From a virus (Duplodnaviria > Heunggongvirae > Uroviricota > Caudoviricetes), in IMG/VR virus record IMGVR_UViG_2609460346_000013: a DNA stretch of 23,452 bases, one strand, 5' to 3'. Within the stretch, counting starts at the first letter, position 1. The number at the start of each line of letters is the position of its first letter. Shown piece after piece: positions 1-23,452 of this stretch. The notes below the pieces were generated by a model that was not told where the DNA came from, ran no database searches, and saw only the letters and a list, made by a program, of their open reading frames with translations. A program made the position numbers and the translations under genes.

Positions 1-981
1 TTATAACGTCACTCCGCCTTTTAGTGGATTCAGAGCGACGGCATTTTGCAGATAGTCAGGCGCAAGGTGCGCATAGGCCATCGTCTGCTGAATGCTCGCA
101 TGTCCCAGAATCTGTTGCAGTGCGATTATATTGCCCCCATTCATCATGAAATGGCTTGCGAATGTATGCCGCAGGATGTGGGTTGCCTGATTGGGTGGTA
201 TATCAGGTTTCACTCTGCGTAAAATCCCGCAAAATTTCTCATAATCAACTTTGAATAATTTGGCGCTGGCCTCCTCTTTAACTTTTTTCTCCAGTTCCTC
301 AGAAATCGGCACGGTTCGCTTTTTACCGTTTTTGGTTTTCAGGAAGGTAACCCTGCAATTTGTAATCTGTGCTGGTTTTAGCGTGGCAACTTCCGTCCAT
401 CTTCCTCCAGTGCTCAGACATAAAAGCGCGACAAGTAAGTCATCACCAGCCAAAACATTTAACAGTTTTTCGATTTCTGCTTTTTCCAGGAACGTCATTT
501 CAGGGTTGGCTTCCGCCAGTGGCGGCAGTCCGTGAATTGGGTGTTGCCCGGAAAATTCATCCAATTGAATTAATTTTGTGAACATGCCGGATAATCGGTA
601 CATGTCACGGTTTATCGTTGCGGCACTGATACCATCACGTAGTCGCATGGAACGATAATCCATCAAAGCCCTTTTGCTCATCCTGCTCACTGGTATATCA
701 CCTATGCCGCTGATGGTTTTGAGTAGATGATTAAACTCTTTTGTTCCATGCTCGTGGTTTTGCCCGTGATATTTCCACCAGATGTCCAGCAACTCACTCA
801 AAGTCCGGCGGTCTGCTCGCTGGCCTCCCCATTCTTTCTGACTGGCATTGGCGATTGTGTATCGCTCAAATGCTAGTGCTTCAGCTTTTCTTTCGAATTT
901 CCTGCGGATGCGTTTTCCGTCGCGGCCGCGAGGTCTAATGTCCACTTCATAGCGACCATCATCGAGCTTCTTAATTGCCAT
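1..981 (-). CDS. int: Tyrosine integrase, P2 Int-like (326 aa from MAIKKLDDG; an in-frame ATG at 1011 would add 10 aa)
   Basis: Minus-strand ORF with C-terminal tyrosine-recombinase motifs (HILRHTFASHF, LGHASIQQTMAYAH). A GGAGGG Shine-Dalgarno lies 8 nt upstream of the ATG at 981. N-terminus matches the recalled P2 Int start. Stop codon sits at window positions 1-3. Confidence 0.9.
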   Translation of the reverse strand: MAIKKLDDGRYEVDIRPRGRDGKRIRRKFERKAEALAFERYTIANASQKEWGGQRADRRTLSELLDIWWKYHGQNHEHGTKEFNHLLKTISGIGDIPVSRMSKRALMDYRSMRLRDGISAATINRDMYRLSGMFTKLIQLDEFSGQHPIHGLPPLAEANPEMTFLEKAEIEKLLNVLAGDDLLVALLCLSTGGRWTEVATLKPAQITNCRVTFLKTKNGKKRTVPISEELEKKVKEEASAKLFKVDYEKFCGILRRVKPDIPPNQATHILRHTFASHFMMNGGNIIALQQILGHASIQQTMAYAHLAPDYLQNAVALNPLKGGVTL

Positions 982-1050
982 AAGAAAGCCCTCCGGCGCT
1001 GTATTCACCATCTTGGTAGCAAATGGTGAAAATGTAATCTTTATATAGAG

Positions 1051-3237: not shown

Positions 3238-3509
3238 GTATTCGTATTGAAATTGGCGAACGTTATGTCGTTACCAGTGACAGCTTTCAGTTTATTCTCC
3301 ACGAGAAAAAGAGAGCGGAAAGCGGTAAAAACGCCGGTCAGGAATGGCTGGCGGTGGTTGGTTATTACCCGAAATTAAGCCAGCTCGTTTCCGGCCTGAT
3401 GCATCACGATATTCTGACCGGAAGCGCAAAGTCTTTTGCTGATTTAAACGGGCAGGTTGAGCAACTCAGCAAGCGTTGTTCAGAGGCTTTTGGCTCATAT
3501 GGCCGTTAA
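3234..3509 (+). CDS. Hypothetical early protein (91 aa)
   Basis: ATGA overlap with the preceding gene. Its 3' end overlaps the A start by 11 nt. Confidence 0.55.
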   Translation: MSIRIEIGERYVVTSDSFQFILHEKKRAESGKNAGQEWLAVVGYYPKLSQLVSGLMHHDILTGSAKSFADLNGQVEQLSKRCSEAFGSYGR

Positions 3510-5778
3510 AGCCTCCGGGCGTTTTGTCCCTCCGTCAGCATTTGCCGCAGGCACCGGTAAGACGTTTACCGGTGCTTATGCATGGAACGCGCCACGCGAG
3601 GCCGTCGGGCGCGAAAGACCCCTTACACGTGACGAGATGCGTCAGGTGCAAGGTGTTTTATCCACGATTAACCGCCTGCCTTACTTTTTGCGTTCGCTGT
3701 TTACTTCACGCTATGACTACATCCGGCGCAATAAAAGCCCGGTGCACGGGTTTTATTTCCTCACATCCACTTTTCAGCGTCGTTTATGGCCGCGCATTGA
3801 GCGCGTGAATCAGCGCCATGAAATGAACACCGACGCGTCGTTACTGTTTCTGGCAGAGCGTGACCACTATGCGCGCCTGCCGGGAATGAATGACAAGGAG
3901 CTGAAAAAATTTGCCGCCCGTATCTCATCGCAGCTTTTCATGATGTATGAGGAACTCTGCGATGCCTGGGTGGATGCCCATGGCGAAAAAGAATCGCTGT
4001 TTACGGATGAGGCGCAGGCTCACCTGTATGGTCATGTTGCTGGCGCTGCACGTGCTTTCAATATTTCCCCGCTCTACTGGAAAAAATACCGTAAAGGACA
4101 GATGACCACGAGGCAGGCATATTCTGCCATTGCCCGCCTGTTTAACGATGAGTGGTGGACTCATCAGCTTAAAGGCCAGCGTATGCGCTGGCATGAGGCG
4201 TTACTGATTGCTGTCGGGGAGGTCAATAAAGACCGTTCTCCTTATGCCAGTAAACATGCCATTCGTGATGTGCGTGCACGCCGCCAGGCAAATCTGGAAT
4301 TTCTTAAATCGTGTGACCTTGAAAACAGGGAAACCGGCGAGCGCATCGACCTTATCAGTAAGGTGATGGGCAGTATTTCTAATCCTGAAATTCGCCGGAT
4401 GGAGCTGATGAACACCATTGCCGGTATTGAGCGTTACGCCGCAGCAGAGGGTGATGTGGGGATGTTTATCACGCTGACCGCGCCGTCAAAGTATCACCCG
4501 ACACGTCAGGTCGGAAAAGGCGAAAGTAAAACCGTCCAGCTAAATCACGGCTGGAACGATGAGGCATTTAATCCAAAGGATGCGCAGCGTTATCTCTGCC
4601 ATATCTGGAGCCTGATGCGCACGGCATTCAAGGATAATGATTTACAGGTCTACGGTTTGCGTGTCGTCGAGCCACACCACGACGGAACGCCGCACTGGCA
4701 TATGATGCTTTTTTGTAATCCACGCCAGCGTAACCAGATTATTGAAATCATGCGTCGCTATGCGCTCAAAGAGGATGGCGACGAAAGAGGAGCCGCGCGA
4801 AACCGTTTTCAGGCAAAACACCTTAACCGGGGCGGTGCTGCGGGATATATCGCGAAATACATCTCAAAAAACATCGACGGCTATGCACTGGATGGTCAGC
4901 TCGATAATGATACCGGTAGGCCGCTGAAAGACACAGCTGCGGCTGTTACCGCATGGGCGTCAACGTGGCGCATTCCGCAATTTAAAACGGTTGGTCTGCC
5001 GACAATGGGGGCTTACCGTGAACTACGCAAATTGCCTCGCGGCGTCAGCATTGCTGATGAGTTTGACGAGCGCGTCGAGGCTGCACGCGCCGCTGCAGAC
5101 AGTGGTGATTTTGCGTTGTATATCAGCGCGCAGGGCGGGGCAAATGTCCCGCGCGATTGTCAGACTGTCAGGGTCGCCCGTAGCCCGTCGGATGACGTTA
5201 ACGAGTACGAGGAAGAAGTCGAGAGAGTGGTCGGCATTTACGCGCCGCATCTCGGCGCGCGTCATATTCATATCACCAGAACGACGGACTGGCGCATTGT
5301 TCCGAAAGTGCCGGTCGTTGAGCCTTTGACTTTAAAAAGCGGCATCGCCGCGCCTCGGAGTCCTGTCAATAACTGTGGAAAGCTCACCGGTGGTGATACT
5401 TCGTTACCGGCTCCCACACCTTCTGAGCACGCCGCAGCAGTGCTTAATCTGGTTGATGACGGTGTTATTGAATGGAATGACCAGGAGGTCGTGAGGGCGC
5501 TCAGGGGCGCATTAAAACGAGGTCTGAGAAGACCAAACCGTCAGCAAAGAAACGGAAGCCCGTTAAAACAGCATGAAATGGCACCATCGGCCAGACTGAC
5601 CCGGTCAGAACGAATGCAAATTACCCGTATCCGCGTTGACCTTGCTCAGAACGGTATCAGGCCGCAGCGATGGGAGCTTGAGGCGCTGGCGCGTGGAGCA
5701 ATTGTAAATTACGACGGGAAAAAATTCACGTATCCAGTCGCTGATGAGTGGCGGGGATTCTCAGCAGTAATGGAGTGA
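3499..5778 (+). CDS. A: Replication initiation endonuclease A (rolling-circle initiator; 759 aa from MAVKASGRF)
   Basis: Large ORF with an HUH-type metal-binding motif (PHWHMMLF). N-terminus matches recalled P2 gpA. The longer ORF from 3457 is an upstream extension. Confidence 0.9.
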   Translation: MAVKASGRFVPPSAFAAGTGKTFTGAYAWNAPREAVGRERPLTRDEMRQVQGVLSTINRLPYFLRSLFTSRYDYIRRNKSPVHGFYFLTSTFQRRLWPRIERVNQRHEMNTDASLLFLAERDHYARLPGMNDKELKKFAARISSQLFMMYEELCDAWVDAHGEKESLFTDEAQAHLYGHVAGAARAFNISPLYWKKYRKGQMTTRQAYSAIARLFNDEWWTHQLKGQRMRWHEALLIAVGEVNKDRSPYASKHAIRDVRARRQANLEFLKSCDLENRETGERIDLISKVMGSISNPEIRRMELMNTIAGIERYAAAEGDVGMFITLTAPSKYHPTRQVGKGESKTVQLNHGWNDEAFNPKDAQRYLCHIWSLMRTAFKDNDLQVYGLRVVEPHHDGTPHWHMMLFCNPRQRNQIIEIMRRYALKEDGDERGAARNRFQAKHLNRGGAAGYIAKYISKNIDGYALDGQLDNDTGRPLKDTAAAVTAWASTWRIPQFKTVGLPTMGAYRELRKLPRGVSIADEFDERVEAARAAADSGDFALYISAQGGANVPRDCQTVRVARSPSDDVNEYEEEVERVVGIYAPHLGARHIHITRTTDWRIVPKVPVVEPLTLKSGIAAPRSPVNNCGKLTGGDTSLPAPTPSEHAAAVLNLVDDGVIEWNDQEVVRALRGALKRGLRRPNRQQRNGSPLKQHEMAPSARLTRSERMQITRIRVDLAQNGIRPQRWELEALARGAIVNYDGKKFTYPVADEWRGFSAVME

Positions 5779-6107
5779 ACGTCGCCAGTTGCGAAAATTA
5801 TTTACAGGGGGCAGCGTTAAGCATCTAAAGATCTTGTTCTATGATTAGAATGTTTCCTCGTTGCACTCTCGTATAGTTATTTAATGGGAAGATGTACTCT
5901 ATATGTTGTGTTTTGGTGATAAATGAAGCCAAAGGAAGGAGATTTTGCTTGATTGATGGGCGCTCTTTGCTATACACCTTGTATTGAGAAGGAGAAGTAA
6001 TCAAGGATTAAGCTGGCTTTTGTCAAAAATCTGAAAAGCTTTTTTGACTGAATACGATAGCGAGTTGTACTATTTGCGCCCTCAAAAGTAACCGGCGGCT
6101 GGGTAAA

Positions 6108-6482
6108 ATGGGGAAGCAAGGCAAAGGCAAAGGCAACAAAAATCAGGTTAAGGTTACGTGGGCTCAGGCGTGGCGGGATGTAATGATAAGAGCCATGTCT
6201 AATGGTCAGTTGATACCTATTACCATCAGTATTATTTTAATGATTGCTGCATGGAGGTTACCAAAAACAGACTTGTCCAATTTAGCCTTCTCTATTGTTG
6301 ATGGCTTTAAGGAGCATTCCTTGGTTGGTTGGGCTATCTCGGTAATAGTGGGTTTGGCTTGGTCTGCACATGCGCGAATCATGAGGCGCTGTTTTAGTTC
6401 CGAGGCACAGAGAATCGGTAACGAGAAAACAAAGTATCAACAAAGACAGACCACTCAAGCCTTGGGTACAAGTGATAAATAG
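6108..6482 (+). CDS. Small membrane protein with two predicted transmembrane helices (124 aa; start uncertain)
   Basis: Hydrophobic segments LIPITISIILMIAAW and LVGWAISVIVGLAW. Lies in the cargo island between A and cos. No recognised domain. Confidence 0.5.
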   Translation: MGKQGKGKGNKNQVKVTWAQAWRDVMIRAMSNGQLIPITISIILMIAAWRLPKTDLSNLAFSIVDGFKEHSLVGWAISVIVGLAWSAHARIMRRCFSSEAQRIGNEKTKYQQRQTTQALGTSDK

Positions 6483-6502
6483 TTGTTTATTTAGGAGTTA
6501 TT

Positions 6503-7060
6503 ATGCTGACAGTGCTGTTTTATGTGCTGTTGGGTTTAGGCGCAGCACACTTCATTTACGAGCGAATCATTTTGCCGTCCATCCGACTTCATTATAGAAA
6601 CCAATTGTTTGCGCTTCGTGATGTCGCTAGGAGGAAAATCATTGATGGAGGTTCCGATACTTCCATGCAAGCGGCAACACTTGTGCATGACTCATTGAAT
6701 AACGCTATCAATAGATTGCATTTACTCACGTTGCCAAACAAATTTCGTGCTCAAAAGCGTATGGCAGAAAACCATGCAATAAGGCAGAAAATTCGGCGTG
6801 AGATAGATGTTTTCAAACGCTGTGATGATAGAGAAGTTGTTGATGTACTGTTTAAATCCGGTCGGATACTTGAAAATGTACTGTTATTCAATAGCTTAAT
6901 GTTATTGCTTTACATGTTTCCATTTGTCCTTGCTGTATGGTTCTGTGTTAGGGTCATAAAGACAGCAAGTAGTTTAGTACAGTGGGTCAAAGGAAGAGAT
7001 TTAGAGGAAGCTATAATGCTGCTTCCTGATACTCAGGTTGAAAAGGTTGTATACGCATAA
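6503..7060 (+). CDS. Membrane protein with N- and C-terminal transmembrane helices (185 aa)
   Basis: AGGAG ribosome-binding site 6 nt upstream. Hydrophobic N-terminus (LTVLFYVLLGLGAAHFIY) and C-terminal helix (LLLYMFPFVLAVWFCVRVI). Followed directly by an intrinsic terminator. Confidence 0.6.
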   Translation: MLTVLFYVLLGLGAAHFIYERIILPSIRLHYRNQLFALRDVARRKIIDGGSDTSMQAATLVHDSLNNAINRLHLLTLPNKFRAQKRMAENHAIRQKIRREIDVFKRCDDREVVDVLFKSGRILENVLLFNSLMLLLYMFPFVLAVWFCVRVIKTASSLVQWVKGRDLEEAIMLLPDTQVEKVVYA

Positions 7061-7062
7061 AA

Positions 7063-7088
7063 ATCACCCCTTAGGGGGTGATTTTTTT
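7063..7088 (+). terminator. Rho-independent terminator
   Basis: 7-bp GC-rich stem (TCACCCC/GGGGTGA) with a TTAG loop, followed by a run of seven T. Confidence 0.8.
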
Positions 7089-7299
7089 ACATGACTTTTG
7101 ATTAGCTGACATTGTAAATCCGCATGTATCAGATGCATTGTTTTGCATGTGGAAATGGGTGTTTTCACTGCCAGCTATCGCTACATGTAGCAAAAACACG
7201 GGCTTAATAAGAAATCATTCTGCCATAAGGCATAACTTCCCCGCGTGCTCAGGTATTGACGTCATAGATATGGATCTTTTTTAATCAAGGTATGGTATT

Positions 7300-8247
7300 A
7301 TGAAGATATTTATTAGTTGGTCAGGTCAGGACAGCCTGGAGATAGCAAAAGTATTACGGGATTGGATACCGAATGTTATTCAAGTAGCTGAGCCGTACGT
7401 ATCAGCGGAAGATATTGATAAAGGCACTCGCTGGGCGACTGATATATCAAAGGAACTTGATGACTCTTCTTATGGGATTATTTGCCTTACAAAAAATAAT
7501 ATTAATGCACCGTGGATAAATTTTGAGGCGGGGGCTTTAGGTAAAAAGGTTGATAAGAGCCGGGTTAGTCCTTTCTTGTTTAAAATTAAACCATCTGAGA
7601 TAACAGGCCCAATATTACAATTCCAGTATACTCGTTCGGATGATAAGAACGATATTTTGAAGTTGATGTTGTCAATAAATAATCAAGCAGGATTTTTGAC
7701 TGAAGAACGCTTAACTAAAGCTTTCGAGCAATGGTGGCCAAGTTTAGAGCGTGAGTTAGATAACATTCAAGATATTAACCCTGTAGATAAAGATTCCACT
7801 AAAAAAACAAAAGGTGATTCGACTTCTGAGATACAAAATCTTTCCAAAATTGTTGAAAGTTTGCTGGATATTAGCCGAACAAATCACCAATTATTGCGTG
7901 ATCCAGCATCATTATTGCCAGAAGAATATGTTAGCAAAATAATAAACAGGGAAGGGCGTAAAGAAACTGTTTTAAAAATTGTAGCTTCTGATTTATTATC
8001 CATGCATCATTCACTAATTCGTGTAAAAAGAAGATTTATTCGTCGTGGTATTGATGAAACATCTAGGAGCGAGTTAATTGAATCATTAAATAAAATGATA
8101 ATGGATTGTTCTAGAGTAATCGCTCACTTAGATAATTATTGTGGGGCTTCATCAAACAATATGTTCAATAGTGCGCTTAGATTGCGGACCAGAAATTTAA
8201 TTGACATGATGGATGAGGAGGATGCAGAACGGGATGAAATGGAATAA
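7300..8247 (+). CDS. TIR-like domain protein with an uncharacterised C-terminal helical domain (315 aa)
   Basis: N-terminus MKIFISWSGQDS matches the TIR first-strand signature. Downstream ICLTKNNINAPWINFEAGAL fits the TIR W-x-x-E block that carries the catalytic glutamate. About 170 C-terminal residues have no recognised motif. Visibly AT-rich. Confidence 0.7.
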   Translation: MKIFISWSGQDSLEIAKVLRDWIPNVIQVAEPYVSAEDIDKGTRWATDISKELDDSSYGIICLTKNNINAPWINFEAGALGKKVDKSRVSPFLFKIKPSEITGPILQFQYTRSDDKNDILKLMLSINNQAGFLTEERLTKAFEQWWPSLERELDNIQDINPVDKDSTKKTKGDSTSEIQNLSKIVESLLDISRTNHQLLRDPASLLPEEYVSKIINREGRKETVLKIVASDLLSMHHSLIRVKRRFIRRGIDETSRSELIESLNKMIMDCSRVIAHLDNYCGASSNNMFNSALRLRTRNLIDMMDEEDAERDEME

Positions 8248-8791
8248 TCAATTTTGACTAATCATAAATAATTTTGCATATATAAACTTATAATGCCGCA
8301 GCCGCTATTTTTCAGCGGCTGTATATCGCTTATAATGGGTATGTTATTTTTATTTTGATAAAATCATTAAAATTGTCGATGTTATATGAATGCACATGTA
8401 TTATTAATGTTAGAAGATTATGCCTGCTTACGGCTATTGTGCTGAATTCAACTATGAACGCATCAGTATTAAAATCGTTCCATGAAATGTTCTTCGTCTA
8501 CAGCAGATGATGGGCAACGAAAAAATGACGCTGAGTGAGTTGGTCGGGGAGAATTGTTAGAGGTATTTATGGAGTGGTTTAATAATATCGGTCAATCCTG
8601 AGTTGCAGCATCACATAGACGATAGGGAATCTCTCCAGTCGTTCTGGAATGGCAGCGTTGAACAACAAGCACAGCGAGGCGTTAGATGCCCATCAGATTG
8701 ACACAGAGGGTTTATGAATCGCTGGGATTTACTTAGTTTGAAAAATAATATATTTATATGTTTTTGTATTGTGTTTGTTAAGGAGTTTGGA

Positions 8792-8998
8792 TTGAAAAGA
8801 AAACTGATTTGTGTTATGGCTTTTTGGGGGGCGTTGCTGGCTGGTTGTAATGAGAGTAATAAAAAAGAAGTTGAGGGTTGTATTGAAAGAGGTGTCCAAT
8901 ATTTTATAGAGATTGGTTCTTACCCTAAATTAAGTGATGGGCGTGATGCTGTAAAAGTTGCTACTGAACGTTGTAATAGAACAATAACGGCTTTCTGA
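8792..8998 (+). CDS. Small lipoprotein (about 68 aa from a TTG start; the ORF track's longer frame starts at 8714)
   Basis: AGGAG at 8781..8785 sits 6 nt before the TTG at 8792. Signal peptide with lipobox (KRKLICVMAFWGALLAGC). Stop is 2 nt before the next ATG. Confidence 0.5.
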   Translation: MKRKLICVMAFWGALLAGCNESNKKEVEGCIERGVQYFIEIGSYPKLSDGRDAVKVATERCNRTITAF

Positions 8999-9000
8999 TA

Positions 9001-9918
9001 ATGGATTATACGAGCTATATAATAGGACAGCTTCAGGTTGAGGATATTATTGATGCAATTAAAGGCGTTAATAATACTAATGTCATAAAAGATTATGTGC
9101 TGCCTGTAGTATTACCAATTATATCTTCTGTGCTGAGTTACTTTATTGCAACTAGGTTGTTTTATCGGCAGGAGTACCTTAAAGCACAAAGAAGAAAGGT
9201 AAGCGTTGTAAATAAATGTATTTATGACTACTTTTCTGCAATGACAACGTTGTTGCAAATTAAAGGGAATTATTATGGTGGGGTAAGTATAAGTGAAAAT
9301 CCTATCGAGAGGGCTTTAGCTTTTCCTGTTGTGGTTTTTTCTGGTGCTCCTCTATCATCAGATTTAAGTGAGTTGGCCTGTATATTGAGTCAAAAGGGAG
9401 TAGGGAATAATAGAGAGCCAGCAAAGACTACTAACTGGGGGGATGCTTTTGCTGTTAGTGATATAGCAAGAAGGTTTAACAGCCTATTGGCTGCATTAAA
9501 TGTTAGGAATGATTTTGATGACACCTATAGAGGAATGATTATTGAATCAACAGGTTCACCTTTGCCTACGATGCGTTTTAAAAATGATGATATTGTTAAT
9601 GCTATAGGTAGTAATAAGGCAGCTTATTACATTGATATTACTGAGCAAATAATGATTATGATAGATGTTTTGTTGCTTGATATTAATCTGTTGCTCAAAG
9701 AGTTGCCATTGTATGCTGAATCGCTGTTTGACAAAAGAGTAATGCAAGAAGATTCAGGGATTCTTAAATTCAATGATTTGCACGAACGTTTTCCTCTACT
9801 TATGAAACCTGTAACGCCACCTTCGATTAAACTCATGTCTGATTATTTGGGGTACAGTGAAGATGAGATCTTACGACGCTATCCATACCCGTTCTTTAAT
9901 ATGCATGATTGTGAATGA
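9001..9918 (+). CDS. Membrane-anchored hypothetical protein (305 aa, one N-proximal transmembrane helix)
   Basis: Hydrophobic segment VLPVVLPIISSVLSYFIATRLF. Tightly coupled to the upstream lipoprotein gene. AT-rich. No recognised domain. Confidence 0.6.
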   Translation: MDYTSYIIGQLQVEDIIDAIKGVNNTNVIKDYVLPVVLPIISSVLSYFIATRLFYRQEYLKAQRRKVSVVNKCIYDYFSAMTTLLQIKGNYYGGVSISENPIERALAFPVVVFSGAPLSSDLSELACILSQKGVGNNREPAKTTNWGDAFAVSDIARRFNSLLAALNVRNDFDDTYRGMIIESTGSPLPTMRFKNDDIVNAIGSNKAAYYIDITEQIMIMIDVLLLDINLLLKELPLYAESLFDKRVMQEDSGILKFNDLHERFPLLMKPVTPPSIKLMSDYLGYSEDEILRRYPYPFFNMHDCE

Positions 9919-10022
9919 ATGTGCATATGTCAGAAGCCGTTTTTATTGTCAGTTATCGTCAGTGCTGGCGCGCTCTTGGAGTGTTCATGCAACTGCATTA
10001 AAACCGCCCCACGAAGCGGGCG

Positions 10023-10041
10023 GGCGAGGCGGGGAAAGCAC
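10023..10041. other. Putative cos cohesive-end sequence GGCGAGGCGGGGAAAGCAC
   Basis: The 19-mer matches the P2 cohesive-end sequence as I recall it. It lies in a GC-rich non-coding stretch just beyond the portal gene terminator, as in P2. Confidence 0.55.
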
Positions 10042-10171
10042 TGCGCGCTGGCGGTGGTGATGATTGTCTGAGCGCGTCGTGATGGCGTTTAGATTGTGCG
10101 CCGGGGCGTTGGTGTGTCTGCGGGGTGTTTTGTACAGTGGCGAGCGTGTGAGGGCGTGATGACGGGGGTGT

Positions 10172-10193
10172 AAAAAAGCCGCCCGCAGGCGGC
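10172..10193 (-). terminator. Rho-independent terminator for Q (minus strand)
   Basis: GCCGCC/GGCGGC hairpin followed on the minus strand by six U, 5 nt past the Q stop codon. Confidence 0.7.
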
Positions 10194-10198
10194 GATGT

Positions 10199-11233
10199 TC
10201 AGCCGTTGTCAGTGTCCAGTGAGTAGTTTTTAAAGCGGATGACCTCCTGACCGAGCCAGCCGTTTATTTCCCGAATCCTGTCCTGTAACGGGATAAGTTC
10301 ATTGCGGACAAAGACCTTTGCCACTTTCTCAATATCGCCCAGCGACCCGACGTTTTCCGGCTTGCCACCCATCAACTGAAAGGGGATGCGGTGCGCGTCC
10401 AGCAGGTCAGCGGCGCTGGCTTTTTTGATATTAAAAAAATCGTCCTTCGTGGCCACTTCACTGAGCGGGATAATTTTAATGCCGTCGGCTTTTCCCTGTG
10501 GGGCATAGAGAAACAGGTTTTTAAAGTTATTGCGGCCTTTCGACTTCACCATGTTTTCGCGGAGCATTTCGATATCGTTGCGATCCTGCACGGCATCAGT
10601 GACGTACATGATGTATCCGGCATGTGCGCCGTTTTCGTAATACTTGCGGCGGAACAGCGTGGCCGACTCATTCAGCCAGGCAGAGTTAAGGGCGCTGAGA
10701 TATTCCGGCAGACCGTACAGCTCCTGATTAATATCCGGCTCCAGCAGGTGAAACACGGAGCCGGGCGCGAAAGGTGTCGGCTCGTTGAAGGACGGCACCC
10801 ACCAGTAAACATCCTCCTCCACGCCACGGCGGGGATATTTTGCCGGTGAGGTTTCCAGTCTGATGACCTTACCGGTGGTGCTGTAACGCTTTTCCAGAAA
10901 CGCATTACCGAATACCAGAAAATCCAGCACAAAGCGGCTGAAATCCTGCTGAGAAAGCCACGGGTGTGGGATAAACGTTGAGGCCAGAATGTTACGTTTG
11001 ACGTAAATCGGTGAGCTGTGATGCACGGCAGCACGCAGGCTTTTTGCCAGACCGGTAAAGCTGACTGGTGGCTCATACCATCTGCCGTTACTGATGCACT
11101 CGACGTAATCCAGAATGTCACGGCGGTCGAGTACCGGCACCGGCTCACCAAAGGTGAATGCCTCCATTTTCGGGGCGCTGGCGGTCATTTTTTTTGCCGC
11201 AGGTTGCGGTGTTTTCCCTTTTTTCTTGCTCAT
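10199..11233 (-). CDS. Q: Portal protein, P2 gpQ-like (344 aa)
   Basis: Length identical to recalled P2 gpQ, with the lysine-rich MSKKKGKTPQPAAK N-terminus. Lies next to cos and is divergent from the lysis and tail genes. Confidence 0.9.
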   Translation of the reverse strand: MSKKKGKTPQPAAKKMTASAPKMEAFTFGEPVPVLDRRDILDYVECISNGRWYEPPVSFTGLAKSLRAAVHHSSPIYVKRNILASTFIPHPWLSQQDFSRFVLDFLVFGNAFLEKRYSTTGKVIRLETSPAKYPRRGVEEDVYWWVPSFNEPTPFAPGSVFHLLEPDINQELYGLPEYLSALNSAWLNESATLFRRKYYENGAHAGYIMYVTDAVQDRNDIEMLRENMVKSKGRNNFKNLFLYAPQGKADGIKIIPLSEVATKDDFFNIKKASAADLLDAHRIPFQLMGGKPENVGSLGDIEKVAKVFVRNELIPLQDRIREINGWLGQEVIRFKNYSLDTDNG

Positions 11234-11740
11234 CAGTAAAACTCCAGAATGGTGGATGTCAGCGGGGTGCTGATACCGGCGGTGAGTGGCTCATTTAACA
11301 GGGCGTGCATGGTCGCCCAGGCGAGGTCGGCGTGGCTGGCTTCCTCGCTACGGCTGGCCTCATAGGTGGCGCTGCGTCCGCTGCTGGTCATGGTCTTGCG
11401 GATAGCCATGAACGAGCTGGTGATGTCGGTGGCGCTGACGTCATATTCCAGACAGCCACGGCGGATGACGTCTTTTGCCTTGAGCACCATTGCGGTTTTC
11501 ATTTCCGGCGTGTAGCGGATATCGCGTGCGGCGGGATAGAACGAGCGCACGAGCTGGAACACGCCGACACCGAGGCCGGTGGCATCAATTCCGATGTATT
11601 CGACGTTGTATTTTTCGGTGAGTTTGCGGATGGATTCCGCCTGAGTGGCAAAGTCCATGCCTTTCCACTGGTGACGCTCAAGTATTCTGAATTTACCTCC
11701 GGCCACCACCGGCGGTGCCAGCACCACGCATCCGGCGCTG
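11233..11740 (-). pseudogene. P: Terminase ATPase subunit P, C-terminal fragment only (about 165 codons; N-terminal part deleted)
   Basis: The reading frame stops overlapping the Q start as in P2, but only about 165 codons remain instead of about 590. The upstream end abuts a truncated K on the opposite strand. Confidence 0.75.
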
Positions 11741-14131: not shown

Positions 14132-14917
14132 TTATGAGTGATTTTTATTTGATGCTTTGTATTCTAAAACCTTCTTATTGGCGTAAAAGAATTTTGTATA
14201 TGACAGGAATATAACCAGACCTGAAGTGAAATAGACGAGGGATAGTATTAATAATGCTTTTTTGCGACTGTTATTATCTTTAATCTCCAGGCTTAACCAT
14301 TCGGAGTCCTCCTCGTTTAGCTGTAAGAGCTTATTGCAGGCGATTTCAGGAAGTGTGTCTTTTATAAATACGTTTTGCAGTCTCTTGCAATCGGCAAGGC
14401 TATAAGTTTTATTAAATTCAACTGCTTTATTTTTGAAGGATAAAAGAACTTTGTCACTATAAACATAGTACATCATGTTTTTATATGGTATGCCTATGGC
14501 ATCCCTTACTATAACGGATTGTTCGTTGTGTATGTAACATGCGAGGAGAATGTAAAAAATACTGGCCAGAATTACAATTATTGTTTTAATTATGTGTGGT
14601 GGTTTTGTTATGTCACCCCAGATGCGAGTAAGGAAAAAATACGATGTTTTTAGTTTTCCATCAATCAGTCCCTGCTGTATCATTCTCACATTTTCAATGC
14701 CTGATACATTGATTCCGTTAATTATTTTAAATAGTTGAATGTCGCGCCACTCGCGGTCAAGTCTTTTTAATTTTTTGTCTGAATATCCAAAATTGAAATA
14801 ATGTGCAATAAGCCTCATAAGGTTACTTTTACCAAAGCTAAAAAATGCTAATACTGCAAAGCTACAAAGGAAAAAAACGATTAGCCCCCACACATTAGTC
14901 ACATTATAGCTGACCAT
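14132..14917 (-). CDS. Multi-pass membrane protein, cargo gene antisense to the tail operon (261 aa)
   Basis: Strong AAGGAGA ribosome-binding site on the minus strand 8 nt before the ATG at 14917. Hydrophobic helices at the N-terminus, middle and C-terminus. Very AT-rich. Occupies the position of the antisense orf30 between S and V in P2. Confidence 0.7.
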   Translation of the reverse strand: MVSYNVTNVWGLIVFFLCSFAVLAFFSFGKSNLMRLIAHYFNFGYSDKKLKRLDREWRDIQLFKIINGINVSGIENVRMIQQGLIDGKLKTSYFFLTRIWGDITKPPHIIKTIIVILASIFYILLACYIHNEQSVIVRDAIGIPYKNMMYYVYSDKVLLSFKNKAVEFNKTYSLADCKRLQNVFIKDTLPEIACNKLLQLNEEDSEWLSLEIKDNNSRKKALLILSLVYFTSGLVIFLSYTKFFYANKKVLEYKASNKNHS

Positions 14918-15000
14918 TACGCTCTCCTTGAATGTTGTCTGGTAGTTCTACAAATGAATCCAGATAGCATAACTTTTATATATTGTGCAATCTCACATGC

Positions 15001-15636
15001 ATGAACACTCTCGCAAATATTCAGGAACTCGCGCGCGCACTGCGCAACATGATTCGCACCGGCATTATCGTCGAAACCGACCTTAACGCCGGTCGCTGCC
15101 GCGTGCAGACCGGCGGCATGTGCACCGACTGGCTTCAGTGGCTGACCCATCGCGCCGGTCGTTCGCGCACATGGTGGGCACCTTCCGTGGGGGAACAGGT
15201 GCTGATTCTGTCCGTGGGCGGTGAACTCGACACGGCGTTTGTTCTGCCGGGGATTTATTCCGGCGATAATCCCGCGCCGTCTGCGTCGGCGGATGCCCTG
15301 CATATCCGTTTCCCTGACGGGGCGGTGATTGAGTATGAACCCGAAACCAGTGCGCTCACGGTAAGCGGAATTAAAACGGCCAGCGTGACGGCTTCCGGTT
15401 CTGTTACTGCCACTGTGCCGGTGGTCATGGTGAAAGCGTCAACCCGCATCACCCTGGACACACCGGAGGTGGTCTGCACCAACAGGCTGATTACCGGCAC
15501 GCTGGAAGTGCAGAAGGGCGGGACGATGCGCGGCAACATTGAACACACCGGCGGTGAACTCTCATCAAACGGTAAGGTACTGCATACCCATAAACACCCC
15601 GGCGACAGCGGCGGCACAACCGGGAGTCCTCTATGA
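15001..15636 (+). CDS. V: Baseplate spike protein V (211 aa from MNTLANIQ)
   Basis: Length matches recalled P2 gpV. The ORF track's earlier TTG start at 14983 is unlikely. Confidence 0.85.
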   Translation: MNTLANIQELARALRNMIRTGIIVETDLNAGRCRVQTGGMCTDWLQWLTHRAGRSRTWWAPSVGEQVLILSVGGELDTAFVLPGIYSGDNPAPSASADALHIRFPDGAVIEYEPETSALTVSGIKTASVTASGSVTATVPVVMVKASTRITLDTPEVVCTNRLITGTLEVQKGGTMRGNIEHTGGELSSNGKVLHTHKHPGDSGGTTGSPL

Positions 15637-19475: not shown

Positions 19476-20003
19476 ATGCAGCATTTAAAAAATATTACTG
19501 CGGGTAATCCAAAAACTGTTGCCCAATATCAACTGACAAAAAATTTTGATGTTATCTGGTTATGGTCCGAAGAGGGAAAAAACTGGTATGAGGAAGTAAG
19601 TAATTTTCAGGAAGACACGATAAAGATTGTTTACGACGAGAATAATATAATTGTCGGCATCACCAGAGATGCTTCAACGCTTAACCCTGAAGGTTTCAGC
19701 GTTGTCGAGGTTCCTGATATTACCTCCAACCGACGTGCTGATGACTCAGGTAAATGGATGTTTAAGGATGGTGCCGTGATTAAGCGGATTTATACGGCAG
19801 ATGAACAGGAGCAACAGGCAGAATCACAAAAAGCAGCTTTACTTTCCGAAGCGGAAAGCGTTATTCAGCCACTGGAACGCGCTGTCAGGCTGAATATGGC
19901 GACGGATGAGGAATGCGCACGACTGGAGTCATGGGAACGCTACAGCGTTCTGATCAGCCGTGTGGATCCTGCAAATCCTGAATGGCCGGAAATGCCGCAA
20001 TAA
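19476..20003 (+). CDS. G: Tail fibre assembly chaperone G (175 aa)
   Basis: Directly downstream of H. Length matches recalled P2 gpG. Confidence 0.8.
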
Positions 20004-20224
20004 GTTGTATAAGCTCTGGTGTGAGATTACATATCTATGGCACAGAGTAAAGCCTAATCTGACAGGCCGCTCTGTGTCTGGAGTAGATTTTAGTAAAGCA
20101 TTATTTTATTAGTGCAAATTCTAATCAATACATTTTATGTATATGATATCCTACGGACTTTAATGACTTGGTTTAGGCTAACCAGATAACACTGAAGGAA
20201 TATTTTTGATAATTAAGGTGCGGT

Positions 20225-20818
20225 ATGTTTACTAAGCGACGATTAAAAAATATTAACTGGGAGGCAAGTTCAGTGATTCTTGCTATGGTTCTCTTTGTTG
20301 GAAATATATTTTATACAAATCATCGTGATGATATAAGCATGGAGGCTGAGAGGGACAGTATCAGAACAATGTTTGCATATGAAATCGCTAATAACCATCG
20401 CGCTCTCACTTTTCTTGATAAAACGAGACATATTGGCTTTGACGAAAATTCGGAGCATTTTGTTGGCGAGCCTTTTGCCATTAATGTCAAATCATTAGGG
20501 GGACCTCGCTTACAGATTGCATTAAACCAGACTGATAAAGTGTTTAAATCCTACTTCGGCGAATTAAGTAAGCTTGATAAAGAGGATGTTACTCTTCTTA
20601 TGGACTATTACCATGAGCAAAGCATCCTGCTGGAGCGTGTAAAATCTACGTTACAGAAGATGAAAAGTGGTAATGATATTAAAGTTGATATTGATGGTTG
20701 CTTATTAGAAGAACACTTCATGAATGAGCTTAATCTTTCTAATATTTTGCTTAAACGCTATAGCTATTTATTATCACAACACGCTAAGGAACATAAAACA
20801 AAAGATTTACATAATTGA
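20225..20818 (+). CDS. N-terminally membrane-anchored hypothetical protein (197 aa), cargo gene at the P2 Z/fun position
   Basis: AAGGTG ribosome-binding site. One N-terminal hydrophobic helix (SSVILAMVLFVGNIFY), then a soluble domain with no recognised motif. AT-rich. Confidence 0.6.
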   Translation: MFTKRRLKNINWEASSVILAMVLFVGNIFYTNHRDDISMEAERDSIRTMFAYEIANNHRALTFLDKTRHIGFDENSEHFVGEPFAINVKSLGGPRLQIALNQTDKVFKSYFGELSKLDKEDVTLLMDYYHEQSILLERVKSTLQKMKSGNDIKVDIDGCLLEEHFMNELNLSNILLKRYSYLLSQHAKEHKTKDLHN

Positions 20819-21044
20819 TAATCTGCTAATGGTTATTCATGGGGTAACTATGTTTTATATGTAATCCAGCCCAGATGAATTATTGATTCTGGATAATAAC
20901 CGCAGAGCGGCATATACCCTGACAGGCAAATGTCCGCTTCTTGCTCAAAGCAGACTGTCAGATTTGATAACTTTTGGGCTATGTAAACTGTCAGTCGGAA
21001 AATGAGTGTGTACAAATCAGGACAGGCGGGGGGAATTGCCCCCA

Positions 21045-21066
21045 TTTTTTTTTTTTTTTTTTTTTT
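21045..21066. repeat. Homopolymeric tract of 22 consecutive T, preceded by an imperfect GC hairpin (GGGGGGAATTGCCCCC)
   Basis: Counted directly. Lies between the cargo gene and the FI remnant. Confidence 0.9.
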
Positions 21067-21148
21067 CCACTGACCAGCCAGGTCAAATAGCGTCTCATGT
21101 ACTACCCAACGGAAAATAGTTGCACCCATTAACCACGGAGTTAAACGG

Positions 21149-21262
21149 ATGAGTGACTATCATCACGGCGTGCAGGTGCTGGAGATTAACGACGGCACCC
21201 GCGTCATTTCCACCGTATCCACAGCCATTGTCGGCATGGTCTGCACGGCTAGCCTCCCGTAA
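21149..21262 (+). pseudogene. FI: Tail sheath FI, N-terminal 37-codon remnant
   Basis: [35 protein letters not shown] matches the recalled P2 FI N-terminus, then runs into a stop after two more codons. Confidence 0.75.
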
Positions 21263-22013
21263 CAGGCTGGAAGCCAGTGTCGCTCCGTCACTGGCCGGAA
21301 TTAAAATCCCGCACATCGACCAGTCGCAGGAGTCCGATGCGAAATTCCTGACCCGTCTTGCTGAACGCAACGGCGGTGAGGTGTCGGTAAAAATGGGAAA
21401 ACTGCTGTTTCTCAAAGCGGGGCAGGGGGGGACGGTCAGCGGTAAAAAAATCCCGCAGATTACCATCACCCGCAGCGACGGCGACCGTCATCATTTTGCG
21501 ATTGCTGACCGTGGAGCCTACACAGGCGTAACGGCAAAGTGGTTACACACCAAAGACCCGAAGCCGCAAAAGCAGAAGGTAAAACTGAAACGCAAAAAGA
21601 AAGAGAAACACCTGCGCGCACTGGAGCACCCGAAAGCGAAACCGGTCACGCAGAAGAAAGAGCCAAAAGTACCGGAAGCGCGCGAAGGTGAATACATGGC
21701 CGGTGAGGCTGACAACGTTTTTGCCCTGACCACGGTATATGCCACGAAAGCACAGGCCATGCGCGCCGCTCAGGCGAAGTGGGATAAACTGCAACGGGGT
21801 GTTGCGGAGTTCTCCATCAGCCTGGCTACTGGTCGGGCAGATATTTACACGGAAACGCCGGTCAGAGTGTCAGGCTTTAAGCGCGTCATAGACGAGCAGG
21901 ACTGGACAATCACTAAGGTGACACATTTTCTGAATAATAGCGGCTTCACGACGTCCCTGGAGCTTGAGGTCAGGCTTTCTGATGTGGAGTACGAAACAGA
22001 AGATGATGAGTGA
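21263..22013 (+). pseudogene. D: Tail protein D, C-terminal fragment (about 240 codons), fused out of frame to the FI remnant
   Basis: The frame carries D-like C-terminal sequence (IPHIDQSQESDAKFLTRLAERNGGEVS ... lysine-rich linker ... RLSDVEYETEDDE). Its first about 36 codons in the ORF track are an out-of-frame read of FI. The exact junction lies within about 21255..21300. Confidence 0.7.
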
Positions 22014-22094
22014 TGTAATTTATTTATCTGTTTGTTTTATAAGGATAAATTAACTAAAATGGCACCATCAACAAAACCGGAAGAGGTGCTCGCG

Positions 22095-22313
22095 ATGTTT
22101 CATTGTCCTTTATGCCAGCATGCCGCACATGCGCGTACAAGCCGCTATATCACTGACACGACAAAAGAGCGTTATCACCAGTGTCAGAACGTGAATTGCA
22201 GCGCCACGTTCATCACTTATGAGTCGGTACAGCGATACATCGTGAAGCCGGGAGAAGTCCATGCCGTAAGGCCGCACCCGTTGCCGTCAGGACAGCAAAT
22301 TATGTGGATGTAA
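22095..22313 (+). CDS. ogr: Late-gene transcriptional activator Ogr (zinc finger, 72 aa from MFHCPLCQH)
   Basis: CxxC...CxxxxC zinc-binding pattern (CPLCQH...CQNVNC). Length and N-terminus match recalled P2 Ogr. It is the last prophage gene before host DNA. Confidence 0.9.
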   Translation: MFHCPLCQHAAHARTSRYITDTTKERYHQCQNVNCSATFITYESVQRYIVKPGEVHAVRPHPLPSGQQIMWM

Positions 22314-22468: not shown

Positions 22469-22549
22469 ATCCTCAATTTGCCTGCTGCTTAATGCATTGC
22501 AGATGATTTGCTTCCGTTATACTACCGTCAGTTGATAGCGGGAGTATTT

Positions 22550-23452
22550 ATGAATCAATCTTATGGACGGCTGGTCAGTCGGGCGGCGATTGCTGCGACG
22601 GCGATGGCTTCGCTGCTATTGCTGATTAAAATTTTTGCATGGTGGTATACCGGGTCGGTGAGTATTCTCGCCGCGCTGGTGGATTCGCTGGTGGATATCG
22701 GCGCGTCGTTGACGAATTTACTGGTGGTGCGATATTCCCTGCAACCTGCCGACGATAATCACTCGTTTGGTCACGGTAAAGCTGAGTCCCTCGCGGCGCT
22801 GGCGCAAAGTATGTTTATCTCCGGTTCGGCACTATTCCTGTTTTTGACGGGTATTCAACATCTGGTATCTCCAACACCGATGACAGATCCAGGCGTCGGG
22901 GTTATCGTGACAATTGTGGCGCTAATTTGTACGATTATCCTTGTCTCGTTTCAGCGTTGGGTGGTGCGCCGGACGCAAAGCCAGGCGGTGCGGGCTGATA
23001 TGCTACATTACCAGTCTGATGTTATGATGAACGGCGCAATTCTGCTGGCGCTGGGGTTGTCCTGGTACGGCTGGCATCGCGCCGATGCTCTGTTTGCATT
23101 GGGGATCGGCATCTATATTTTATATAGCGCGTTACGCATGGGATATGAGGCGGTACAGTCATTACTGGATCGCGCATTGCCTGATGAGGAACGGCAAGAA
23201 ATTATTGATATCGTGACTTCCTGGCCGGGTGTTAGCGGCGCTCACGATCTTCGCACGCGGCAGTCAGGGCCGACCCGCTTTATTCAGATTCATTTGGAAA
23301 TGGAAGACTCTCTGCCTTTGGTTCAGGCACATATGGTGGCGGATCAGGTAGAGCAGGCTATTTTACGGCGTTTTCCGGGATCGGATGTGATTATCCATCA
23401 GGACCCCTGTTCCGTCGTACCCAGGGAGGGTAAACGGTCTATGCTTTCATAA
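22550..23452 (+). CDS. fieF: Cation diffusion facilitator family Fe/Zn efflux transporter FieF (YiiP), 300 aa
   Basis: Starts [35 protein letters not shown] and carries the CDF signature with multiple transmembrane helices. Matches the enterobacterial FieF sequence as I recall it. GGGAG ribosome-binding site upstream. The stop is the last codon of the window. Confidence 0.9.

Follow-up and report, generated by a model that had tools for sequence, protein, structure and literature searches.

A gene for a TIR-domain protein in the cargo region of a P2-like prophage, preceded on the same strand by two genes for membrane proteins, raises the question whether it acts as a defense unit of its own or as one component of a three-gene system, and whether such a system is already known. 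This was analyzed for the window, i.e., the whole stretch of 23,452 nucleotides of viral DNA available for the locus (IMG/VR record IMGVR_UViG_2609460346_000013), the features of which are collected in Table 1.

Relationship to the Locus of Phage AC1

Three consecutive genes of the window are full-length matches to the PADLOC models 2TM-TIR, 1TM-TIR and TIR-TM (Table 1), and the locus is listed in the DefenseFinder catalogue under the name Rst_2TM_1TM_TIR. Over the island, the DNA identity to Escherichia phage P2_AC1 (OV192280.1), which carries the same three genes in the same order and in the same hotspot, is 99.6%. The two TIR proteins agree in 314 of 315 residues, the sole substitution being A283V, and the AC1 1TM protein reaches a score identical to that of the window's own 1TM protein. 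The remaining differences between AC1 and the window are likewise trivial and comprise one GGCAAA repeat fewer in the 2TM gene, the gene orf94, which is frameshifted in AC1 and intact in the window, and the carrier, which in the window is a defective P2-like prophage. The insert start given for the clone pFD240 ("2TM + 1TM + TIR") in Table S2 is matched exactly at window position 5843, and the visible 3′ part of its reverse primer lies at 8609–8627 on the minus strand, the end of the insert at 8634 being an estimate from the remainder of the primer. It is virtually certain that the gene at 7300–8247 is the TIR gene of the described and experimentally validated AC1 anti-phage locus.

According to the sections of Rousset et al. 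(2022; Cell Host Microbe, PMC9122126) that concern this locus, AC1 was isolated and its lysogens resist lambda and LF82_P8; the pFD240 clone reproduced this resistance, also blocked P2 and was active in E. coli C without an added effector. The three genes were assayed as one unit, and the relevant sections of that paper contain no single-gene deletion data for the AC1 trio. As only the trio was tested together, the published phenotype is not attributable to the TIR gene by itself, and the TM proteins may be required for it. A first-pass annotation of the window, made from the sequence alone, had proposed the TIR gene as a new candidate for an NAD-degrading anti-phage effector. The anti-phage role is borne out by the protection that the near-identical pFD240 clone confers against lambda, LF82_P8 and P2 (sections cited above, PMC9122126). 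The NAD degradation is a prediction, and the original authors favored a signal-generating role instead. The claim of novelty had to be given up, since the same locus has already been cloned and is contained in PADLOC and DefenseFinder, and what had been suggested as a possible new pairing with neighboring membrane proteins is how the AC1 system was defined in print. As a discovery the locus therefore carries little weight, being cloned, shown in 2022 to be anti-phage and represented in both main defense-system catalogues. A search of the literature with the RefSeq accessions and the PHROG identifier of the three proteins returned nothing, the name of the system was found in one survey preprint only, and no mechanistic follow-up on AC1 2TM-1TM-TIR was found in the literature searched.

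Table 1. Features of the cargo island and its borders (positions in the window).
Feature	Position	Strand	Basis
P2 gpA-type replication endonuclease gene, left border of the hotspot	3457..5778	+	annotation in the near-identical prophage L002; Pfam Phage_GPA in homologous loci
Equivalent of the pFD240 insert	5843..8634	+	Table S2 insert start and reverse primer
"2TM" gene, basic membrane protein of 124 aa	6108..6482	+	hydrophobic helices ~34–49 and ~71–87; phrog_33772; PADLOC PDLC02978 "2TM-TIR", E=2.2e-58
"1TM" gene, all-helical membrane protein of 185 aa	6503..7060	+	terminal hydrophobic helices 1–19 and 131–149 with a conserved polar helical domain between them; PADLOC PDLC02977 "1TM-TIR", E=2.7e-75
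Rho-independent terminator, closes the 2TM-1TM unit and sets it apart from the TIR gene	7059..7090	+	12-bp stem and U run
TIR-domain protein gene, 315 aa	7300..8247	+	ORF; Pfam TIR_2; PADLOC PDLC03016 "TIR-TM", full length, E=2.3e-118
TIR domain, aa 1–150	7300..7749	+	E76 codon 7525–7527 within APW[IL]NFEAG
Helix-turn motif in the C-terminal helical region, aa 186–210	7855..7929	+	conserved ExxLxxxRxNxxxLRxPxxxxPxxY, with L189 and R193 in the conserved helix
GC-rich hairpin 3′ of the TIR gene	8298..8322	+	dG -15.9 kcal/mol, z -2.9; within the block shared with the Klebsiella TIR-only cassette
Separate downstream cassette: orf94 (8714–8998) and orf305 (9001–9918)	8714..9918	+	outside the validated clone
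P2-type cos cohesive-end sequence GGCGAGGCGGGGAAAGCAC, right border of the cargo	10023..10041	+	sequence
Portal protein gene (gpQ), right flank	10199..11233	-	"phage portal protein" in L002

The TIR Protein and Its Conserved Residues

The open reading frame starts with ATG, the encoded protein begins with MKIFISWSGQDS and the stretch APWINFEAGAL occupies residues 70–80. The gene has a GC content of 35.8% and is preceded by a spacer of 239 bp with an intrinsic terminator at its start. In these points the translation and the layout agree with the first-pass annotation, which had given this N-terminus, placed APWINFEAGAL about 70 residues further on and described an AT-rich gene with its own upstream spacer. 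Its assignment of a W-x-x-E block was right in that the glutamate motif is present, but W72-I-N-F-E76 has the spacing W-x-x-x-E. A hydropathy scan over the 315 residues detected no hydrophobic or transmembrane segment, and the protein is therefore cytosolic.

The label of the gene in RefSeq is already "toll/interleukin-1 receptor domain-containing protein," and the TIR-like domain suspected from the motifs was recovered by two checks of the kind suggested along with it. In the profile search Pfam TIR_2 (PF13676) matched residues 3–113 with 40.5 bits compared to a curated cutoff of 28 (E=4.7e-10). In the structure prediction, an AlphaFold2 model computed from an input alignment of 32 sequences, the N-terminal part is predicted to adopt a TIR fold with alternating strands and helices and a pLDDT of 80–89 across most of residues 1–150. 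The top matches of this model in a Foldseek search of the PDB are bacterial TIR domains, i.e., those of TcpB/BtpA, PdTIR, BtTir, the SPARTA TIR-APAZ and AbTir, with a probability of 1.0 and target-normalized TM-scores of 0.63–0.68. When the PDB was searched by sequence, neither the TIR protein nor the family profile had a significant TIR match (AbTir, E=0.22), and the C-terminal part returned low-complexity helical matches only.

Across 121 distinct relatives with sequence identities down to 28%, the residues E76, W72, F75, G78, T64 and P104 are invariant, and S6-W7-S8-G9 is kept in 120 of the 121. By motif and fold, as opposed to a residue-level superposition, E76 appears to be the equivalent of the catalytic-type glutamate in solved TIR NADases. 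Very likely, this is an enzyme-type TIR protein of the cytosol, in which the domain with the invariant E76 precedes a helical region that contains a single conserved helix-turn motif. The nearest solved folds, namely TcpB/BtpA, PdTIR and AbTir, might suggest a role outside of defense, in which the protein acts on eukaryotic host signaling or on NAD metabolism in the manner of Tcp/Btp-like TIR proteins. This is highly improbable, as the TIR protein has no secretion signal, the genes of the family reside in cargo hotspots of phages and satellites, beside integrases and in defense islands, the family is also present in free-living bacteria and in Methanosarcina, and the locus has a demonstrated anti-phage phenotype (locus-related sections of PMC9122126).

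The Cargo Hotspot and the Layout of the Island

The island is a low-GC segment of 4.4 kb (38.9% GC) in between genes of approximately 53% GC. Its right border is formed by GGCGAGGCGGGGAAAGCAC, which we take to be the P2 cos end, and the linear P2_AC1 record terminates at the equivalent of window position 10022. The first-pass annotation had placed the gene in the slot in which P2 carries old and tin, and this position is supported by the gpA-type gene on the left and by cos and the portal gene on the right. The cos-proximal region is a hotspot of P2-like phages, where P2 itself has old and tin, as stated in the sections on this hotspot in Rousset et al. (2022; PMC9122126).

The 2TM-1TM unit is closed by the terminator at approximately 7059–7090, for which direct folding gave a dG of -17.8 kcal/mol and a z of -5.58, with none of 200 shuffles (0/200) folding as well; a consensus terminator scanner missed this hairpin (7059–7086), which was revealed by direct folding. 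The scan of the region for promoters gave background levels only. At the DNA level, the homology of the TM pair to Serratia covers 6063–7063 and the homology of the TIR gene to a Klebsiella P2-like prophage (L087) covers 7277–8350, while the terminator-bearing stretch at 7064–7276 is common to neither of the two blocks. DNA homology ends at the cassette borders, and the TIR gene forms a transcription unit of its own, apart from that of the TM pair.

A third cassette, encoding a lipoprotein-like protein and a membrane protein, sits beside the TIR and TM-pair cassettes at 8714–9918. Its orf94 product has a lipobox-like LAGC and orf305 encodes the membrane protein; neither has a match in Pfam, PADLOC or NCBIfam, and they belong to phrog_32041 and phrog_21267, both of them families without an assigned function. 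This cassette is present in E. coli MS 16-3 without a TIR gene.

The Membrane Protein Pair

The model of the 1TM protein reaches a pLDDT of 86 and its structural matches are generic four-helix bundles only. Pfam detected no Macro, SLOG, SLATT or other ligand-binding domain in either of the two TM proteins. The 1TM family comprises 49 clusters, with nearly all annotated members from Enterobacterales, and the 2TM gene lies directly 5′ of the 1TM gene in every locus checked. The pair occurs without a TIR gene in 26 loci (18 of 20 viral loci and 8 genome loci), and among the viral and genome loci examined a TIR gene is found within 5 kb of the pair in the AC1-type island only. Some of the TIR-free pairs are located in lambdoid prophages of Klebsiella and E. 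coli, where they lie between Q and holin or between the lysis genes and HNH/terminase. Others occupy the gpA-portal hotspot of Proteus, Serratia and a 186-like prophage of E. coli (L103, in AARRQY010000002.1, with the pair at 5613–6558 of the locus).

These properties bear on the possibility that the TM pair alone gives the published protection, either by superinfection exclusion at DNA entry or as a Rex-like membrane abortive system, with the TIR gene being a separate defense or silent in the assay. The pair is a strictly conserved two-gene unit confined to cargo positions of temperate phages, the 1TM protein, with a helical bundle between two TM segments, is laid out like envelope sensor domains, and protection against the close relative P2 is typical of exclusion genes. 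However, TIR-only cassettes are kept in the same hotspot of other hosts, an argument for a benefit of the TIR gene on its own, and single-gene TIR defenses are documented in E. coli (PMC11350192). We regard this explanation as unlikely; it partly overlaps with a reading in which the TIR gene is autonomous.

Distribution of the TIR Family

The TIR family is large, with 1511 protein clusters at E<=1e-3 and at least 553 loci in species-representative genomes, and it ranges over Proteobacteria, Bacteroidota, Clostridia, Actinobacteria, Planctomycetota and Methanosarcina. Overall, approximately 140 loci have the TIR gene on its own. In IMG/VR, 48 of 51 TIR loci contain the TIR gene only, and phmmer found no 2TM or 1TM homologue near the TIR gene in 80 GTDB species-representative loci and in L003–L005. 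Solo TIR genes are also found at L086–L092 and L102. Two of these loci share the hotspot with the window: the Klebsiella P2-like prophage L087 has a 74%-identical TIR gene as sole cargo gene in the gpA-portal hotspot, and in the E. coli P2-like prophage L102 (in NJZR01000016.1, with the cassette at 6001–6960 of the locus) a 78%-identical TIR gene is the sole gene between gpA and portal. Other contexts with a solo gene are found in Serratia, Enterobacter/Citrobacter, Burkholderiaceae and Vibrio. Apparent tandem TIR genes in L063, L080 and L081 turned out to be split or frameshifted genes and were rejected as duplications.

All-against-all clustering of the neighbors revealed no recurrent partner of the TIR gene, the best family being common to 5 of 86 loci. 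Phage integrases lead the Pfam scan of the 148 immediate neighbors with 10 matches. Membrane proteins are not enriched beside family members (14 of 54 operon-like neighbors vs. 34 of all 148 neighbors, which include the 54). Of 5426 complete E. coli genomes, 14 carry the TIR gene and all of these (14/14) also the TM pair; the trio in these genomes is one island with a DNA identity of at least 98.9%, while the genes of the TM pair and of the TIR protein are each at least 99% identical to the window.

The TIR gene and the TM pair can be separated in evolution. The confinement of the trio to one island, the solo TIR genes, the TIR-free pairs and the terminator together make the catalogued system look like juxtaposed independent cassettes. 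Solo occurrence means that the cassettes can persist apart, and it is compatible with cooperation when they are together. Such cooperation was proposed by the original authors, who in the sections on the AC1 locus suggested the TIR protein to be a signal generator activating the TM proteins (Rousset et al., 2022; PMC9122126). In this model the TIR protein would sense infection and make an NAD+-derived nucleotide messenger, which would activate the 2TM and 1TM proteins and thereby lead to membrane damage, similar to Thoeris types with TM effectors. In its favor, the genes lie side by side in one orientation and were active when cloned together, there are Thoeris-like systems with TM, Macro-TM and SLATT effectors (bioRxiv 10.64898/2025.12.03.692087), and two distant members of the family adjoin a ThsA with 2TM and Macro parts. 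The gene context speaks against an obligate linkage, as each cassette occurs alone in the same hotspot, a terminator lies between them and they co-occur only in the AC1-type island. We regard a cooperative trio as a possible, if doubtful, explanation.

The Relation to Thoeris

The first-pass annotation had noted the lack of a SIR2, Macro or SLOG partner nearby, which was confirmed as none of the neighbors in the window has such a Pfam or PADLOC domain. Membership of the TIR protein in ThsB was considered and rejected, as the only models that PADLOC reported at E<=1 were TIR-TM and PDC-S66, with none for ThsB. Among 82 distant loci there are two, in Paenibacillus oenotherae (L048) and in Anaerotignum (L050), where a family member adjoins a type II Thoeris ThsA (2TM and Macro, PF20016); in the remaining 80 of 82 there is no effector beside the TIR gene. 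Both L048 and L050 also encode a canonical ThsB matching PDLC00421, and in Anaerotignum the locus is a dense defense island, which also encodes a methyltransferase and Hachiman HamA. At these two loci the family member could serve as an auxiliary ThsB or be a mere neighbor within a defense island. The adjacency to ThsA supports a defense role for the family and leaves a signaling function possible; given the canonical ThsB already in place and the density of the island, it may be incidental.

Several TIR genes are often present per Thoeris locus. An orphan or auxiliary ThsB-type sensor, working only with a Thoeris-type effector elsewhere in the host, would fit the family members that flank a complete type II Thoeris in L048 and L050. 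These loci already possess a canonical ThsB, one of them is a dense defense island, 80 of 82 loci are without an effector nearby, and the AC1 clone worked in E. coli C with no effector added (locus-related sections of PMC9122126), all of which speaks against such a sensor and makes it quite improbable.

Proposed Mechanism and Possible Autonomy of the Cassettes

In the mechanism that we favor, the prophage would express the TIR protein from the own transcription unit of the TIR gene. Upon infection by another phage, the helical C-terminal part might sense a phage component or drive self-association, and the TIR domain would then cleave NAD+, by which the infected cell would stop phage production (abortive infection). 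It is likely that defense depends on the cleavage of NAD+ by the TIR domain in response to a phage cue. The chance that the TIR gene works by itself as a single-gene sensor-effector, causing abortive infection through NAD+ consumption and using its C-terminus for sensing or oligomerization, is in our estimate even; the comparative data, from which this reading is drawn, lean toward a self-sufficient single-gene unit, one of the alternatives offered in the first-pass annotation. Two precedents support the proposed cleavage of NAD+ and autonomy of the TIR protein: single-protein TIR systems in E. coli defend alone and need their catalytic residue (PMC11350192), and the field regards standalone TIRs as likely effectors of NAD+ depletion (bioRxiv 10.64898/2025.12.03.692087).

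For the upstream genes the corresponding reading is that 2TM-1TM is an independent, obligately paired membrane cassette of phages that is merely adjacent to the TIR gene in AC1-type islands, which might equally well hold or fail. Evenly balanced is also the judgment on the catalogue entry, in that Rst_2TM_1TM_TIR may have arisen as an artefact of annotating a mosaic hotspot that combines a standalone TIR, founding a very large cross-phylum family of single-gene defenses (>1500 clusters and >550 species-level loci, including Methanosarcina) for which no characterization was found in the literature searched, with a TM pair of temperate phages of Enterobacterales as a separate exclusion or abortive module. 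Going by gene context, the definition in the catalogue, which requires three genes, probably misdescribes the biology by merging independent modules. Doubt about this definition is consistent with one genomic survey, in which the DefenseFinder model did not detect Rst_2TM_1TM_TIR in the bacterial genomes covered, while the TIR gene alone is common in bacteria.

Should a sensor and an NAD+-consuming effector be combined in this one self-contained protein of approximately 300 aa, it would be among the smallest and most widespread TIR immune modules and a convenient model for the switch-on of TIR domains. The 2TM+1TM pair would then constitute a separate, new module for exclusion by prophages.

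Comparison with Known Systems

With old and tin of P2, the locus shares the slot between gpA and cos/gpQ and the principle of a prophage-encoded exclusion of other phages, whereas the proteins are unrelated and without homology, Old being an ATPase-nuclease. Compared to the structurally characterized TIR proteins AbTir, TcpB/BtpA, PdTIR and BtTir, the TIR protein of the window has an identity of only 15–23% over the structural alignments. Its helical part is C-terminal, unlike in AbTir and BtpA, in both of which the helical part is N-terminal.

The TIR gene beside genes for membrane proteins resembles type II Thoeris (ThsB and the 2TM-Macro protein ThsA; bioRxiv 10.1101/2024.01.03.573942) as well as types V–XI with TM effectors (bioRxiv 10.64898/2025.12.03.692087), and the two distant family members adjoining ThsA-Macro add to this likeness. 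It differs from Thoeris in that the TIR protein of the window matches no PADLOC ThsB model, the TM neighbors have no Macro, SLOG or SLATT domain and a partner is not conserved family-wide. [quoted passage not shown] The family of the window differs from these proteins by its own conserved C-terminal helix motif and by an autonomy that is deduced from gene context, and it resembles them, in a comparison by description, in the solo occurrence of its genes.

The remnant prophage

The prophage that carries the island is defective. Since the window starts with the integrase gene of the prophage and ends in a chromosomal cation-efflux gene (Cation_efflux and ZT_dimer domains), it covers nearly the entire remnant, which amounts to ~22 kb. 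Of the terminase ATPase gene only the part encoding the C-terminal 163 aa remains, for which Pfam reports Terminase_6C only, and homology to P2-like phages picks up again at ~11737 with the genes for endolysin and lysis; P has therefore lost its 5′ part, and O, N, M, L, X and the holin gene are deleted. By contrast, the near-identical prophage L002 is intact.

The tail-fibre assembly gene is followed by a second deletion or rearrangement. This region appears to lack the genes for sheath and tube as well as E, T and U, and the ORF preceding ogr matches the C-terminal two-thirds of gpD only (profile positions 106-304). Next to an ORF encoding 197 aa, two further unannotated ORFs on the minus strand occupy the same gap, and scans of these three gap ORFs with Pfam and PADLOC returned no match. 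Moreover, two ORFs running opposite to the tail genes are found at the position of P2 orf30. These also gave no match in Pfam and PADLOC, and a homologue is labelled 'putative 30.4 kDa protein' in a phage record.

Features of the remnant prophage and its cargo, in window coordinates
Feature	Position	Strand	Remark
Integrase gene	1-1011		window start
Repeat in the 2TM gene	6114-6137		5′ end of the gene
orf94 and orf305	8714-9918		cassette downstream of the TIR gene
Region of the truncated terminase ATPase gene	11233-11740		
Two ORFs	14132-15303	minus	260 aa and 127 aa; flanked by tail genes S and V
Second deletion or rearrangement	20003-22313		
Unannotated ORF	20225-20818		197 aa; in the gap after the tail-fibre assembly gene
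ORF matching gpD	21153-22013		
ogr	22032-22313		next after the gpD-matching ORF
Cation-efflux gene	22508-23452		chromosomal; window end

A separate cassette downstream of the TIR gene

The two genes downstream of the TIR gene, orf94 and orf305, form one separate cassette, which is not contained in the insert that Rousset et al. validated. E. coli MS 16-3 carries the cassette without a TIR gene, adjoining another hypothetical gene, and in the Escherichia phage P2_AC1 (AC1) orf94 carries a frameshift. The orf94 product has a lipobox-like signal (LLAGC) and orf305 encodes a membrane protein; they correspond to phrog_32041 and phrog_21267, to which no function is assigned. The cassette may represent an exclusion module.

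Genomic settings of the island genes

The 2TM and 1TM genes of the island form a strictly conserved pair that occupies cargo slots in temperate phages of Enterobacterales, nearly always without a TIR gene (L093-L100, L103, L106-L123). The pair is located either between the antiterminator Q and holin genes, or with the lysis genes on one side and HNH/terminase on the other, or in the gpA-portal hotspot of P2/186. The 1TM protein consists of a helical domain flanked by two TM helices, and the invariant polar residues of this domain are H16, Y19, E20, R28, R32, D40, R43, N66, N67 and N70.

In Enterobacter and Citrobacter (L090-L092) a solo TIR gene has chromosomal mug (UDG) on one side and, on the other, a phage or satellite-like element that is integrated downstream of rpoD and whose terminase end faces the TIR gene. 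This is a further cargo position at the edge of an element. In Paenibacillus oenotherae (L048, 4112-6879) and Anaerotignum sp. (L050, 4932-9953) members of the TIR family adjoin a complete type II Thoeris locus composed of a ThsA of the 2TM-Macro type and a canonical ThsB, in Anaerotignum together with a type II methyltransferase and Hachiman HamA.

Variants of the island

In one of the 14 complete E. coli genomes having the island, GCEC19 (NZ_CP137765.1, 4888623-4895639), the IS21-family element ISEc12 (istA/istB) is inserted inside the part matching window 5780-10198. The 2TM gene contains an in-frame GGCAAA (Gly-Lys) repeat, which reads MGKQGKGKGN in the window, whereas in AC1, its clone pFD240 and two E. 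coli genomes it is longer by one GK unit (+6 bp).
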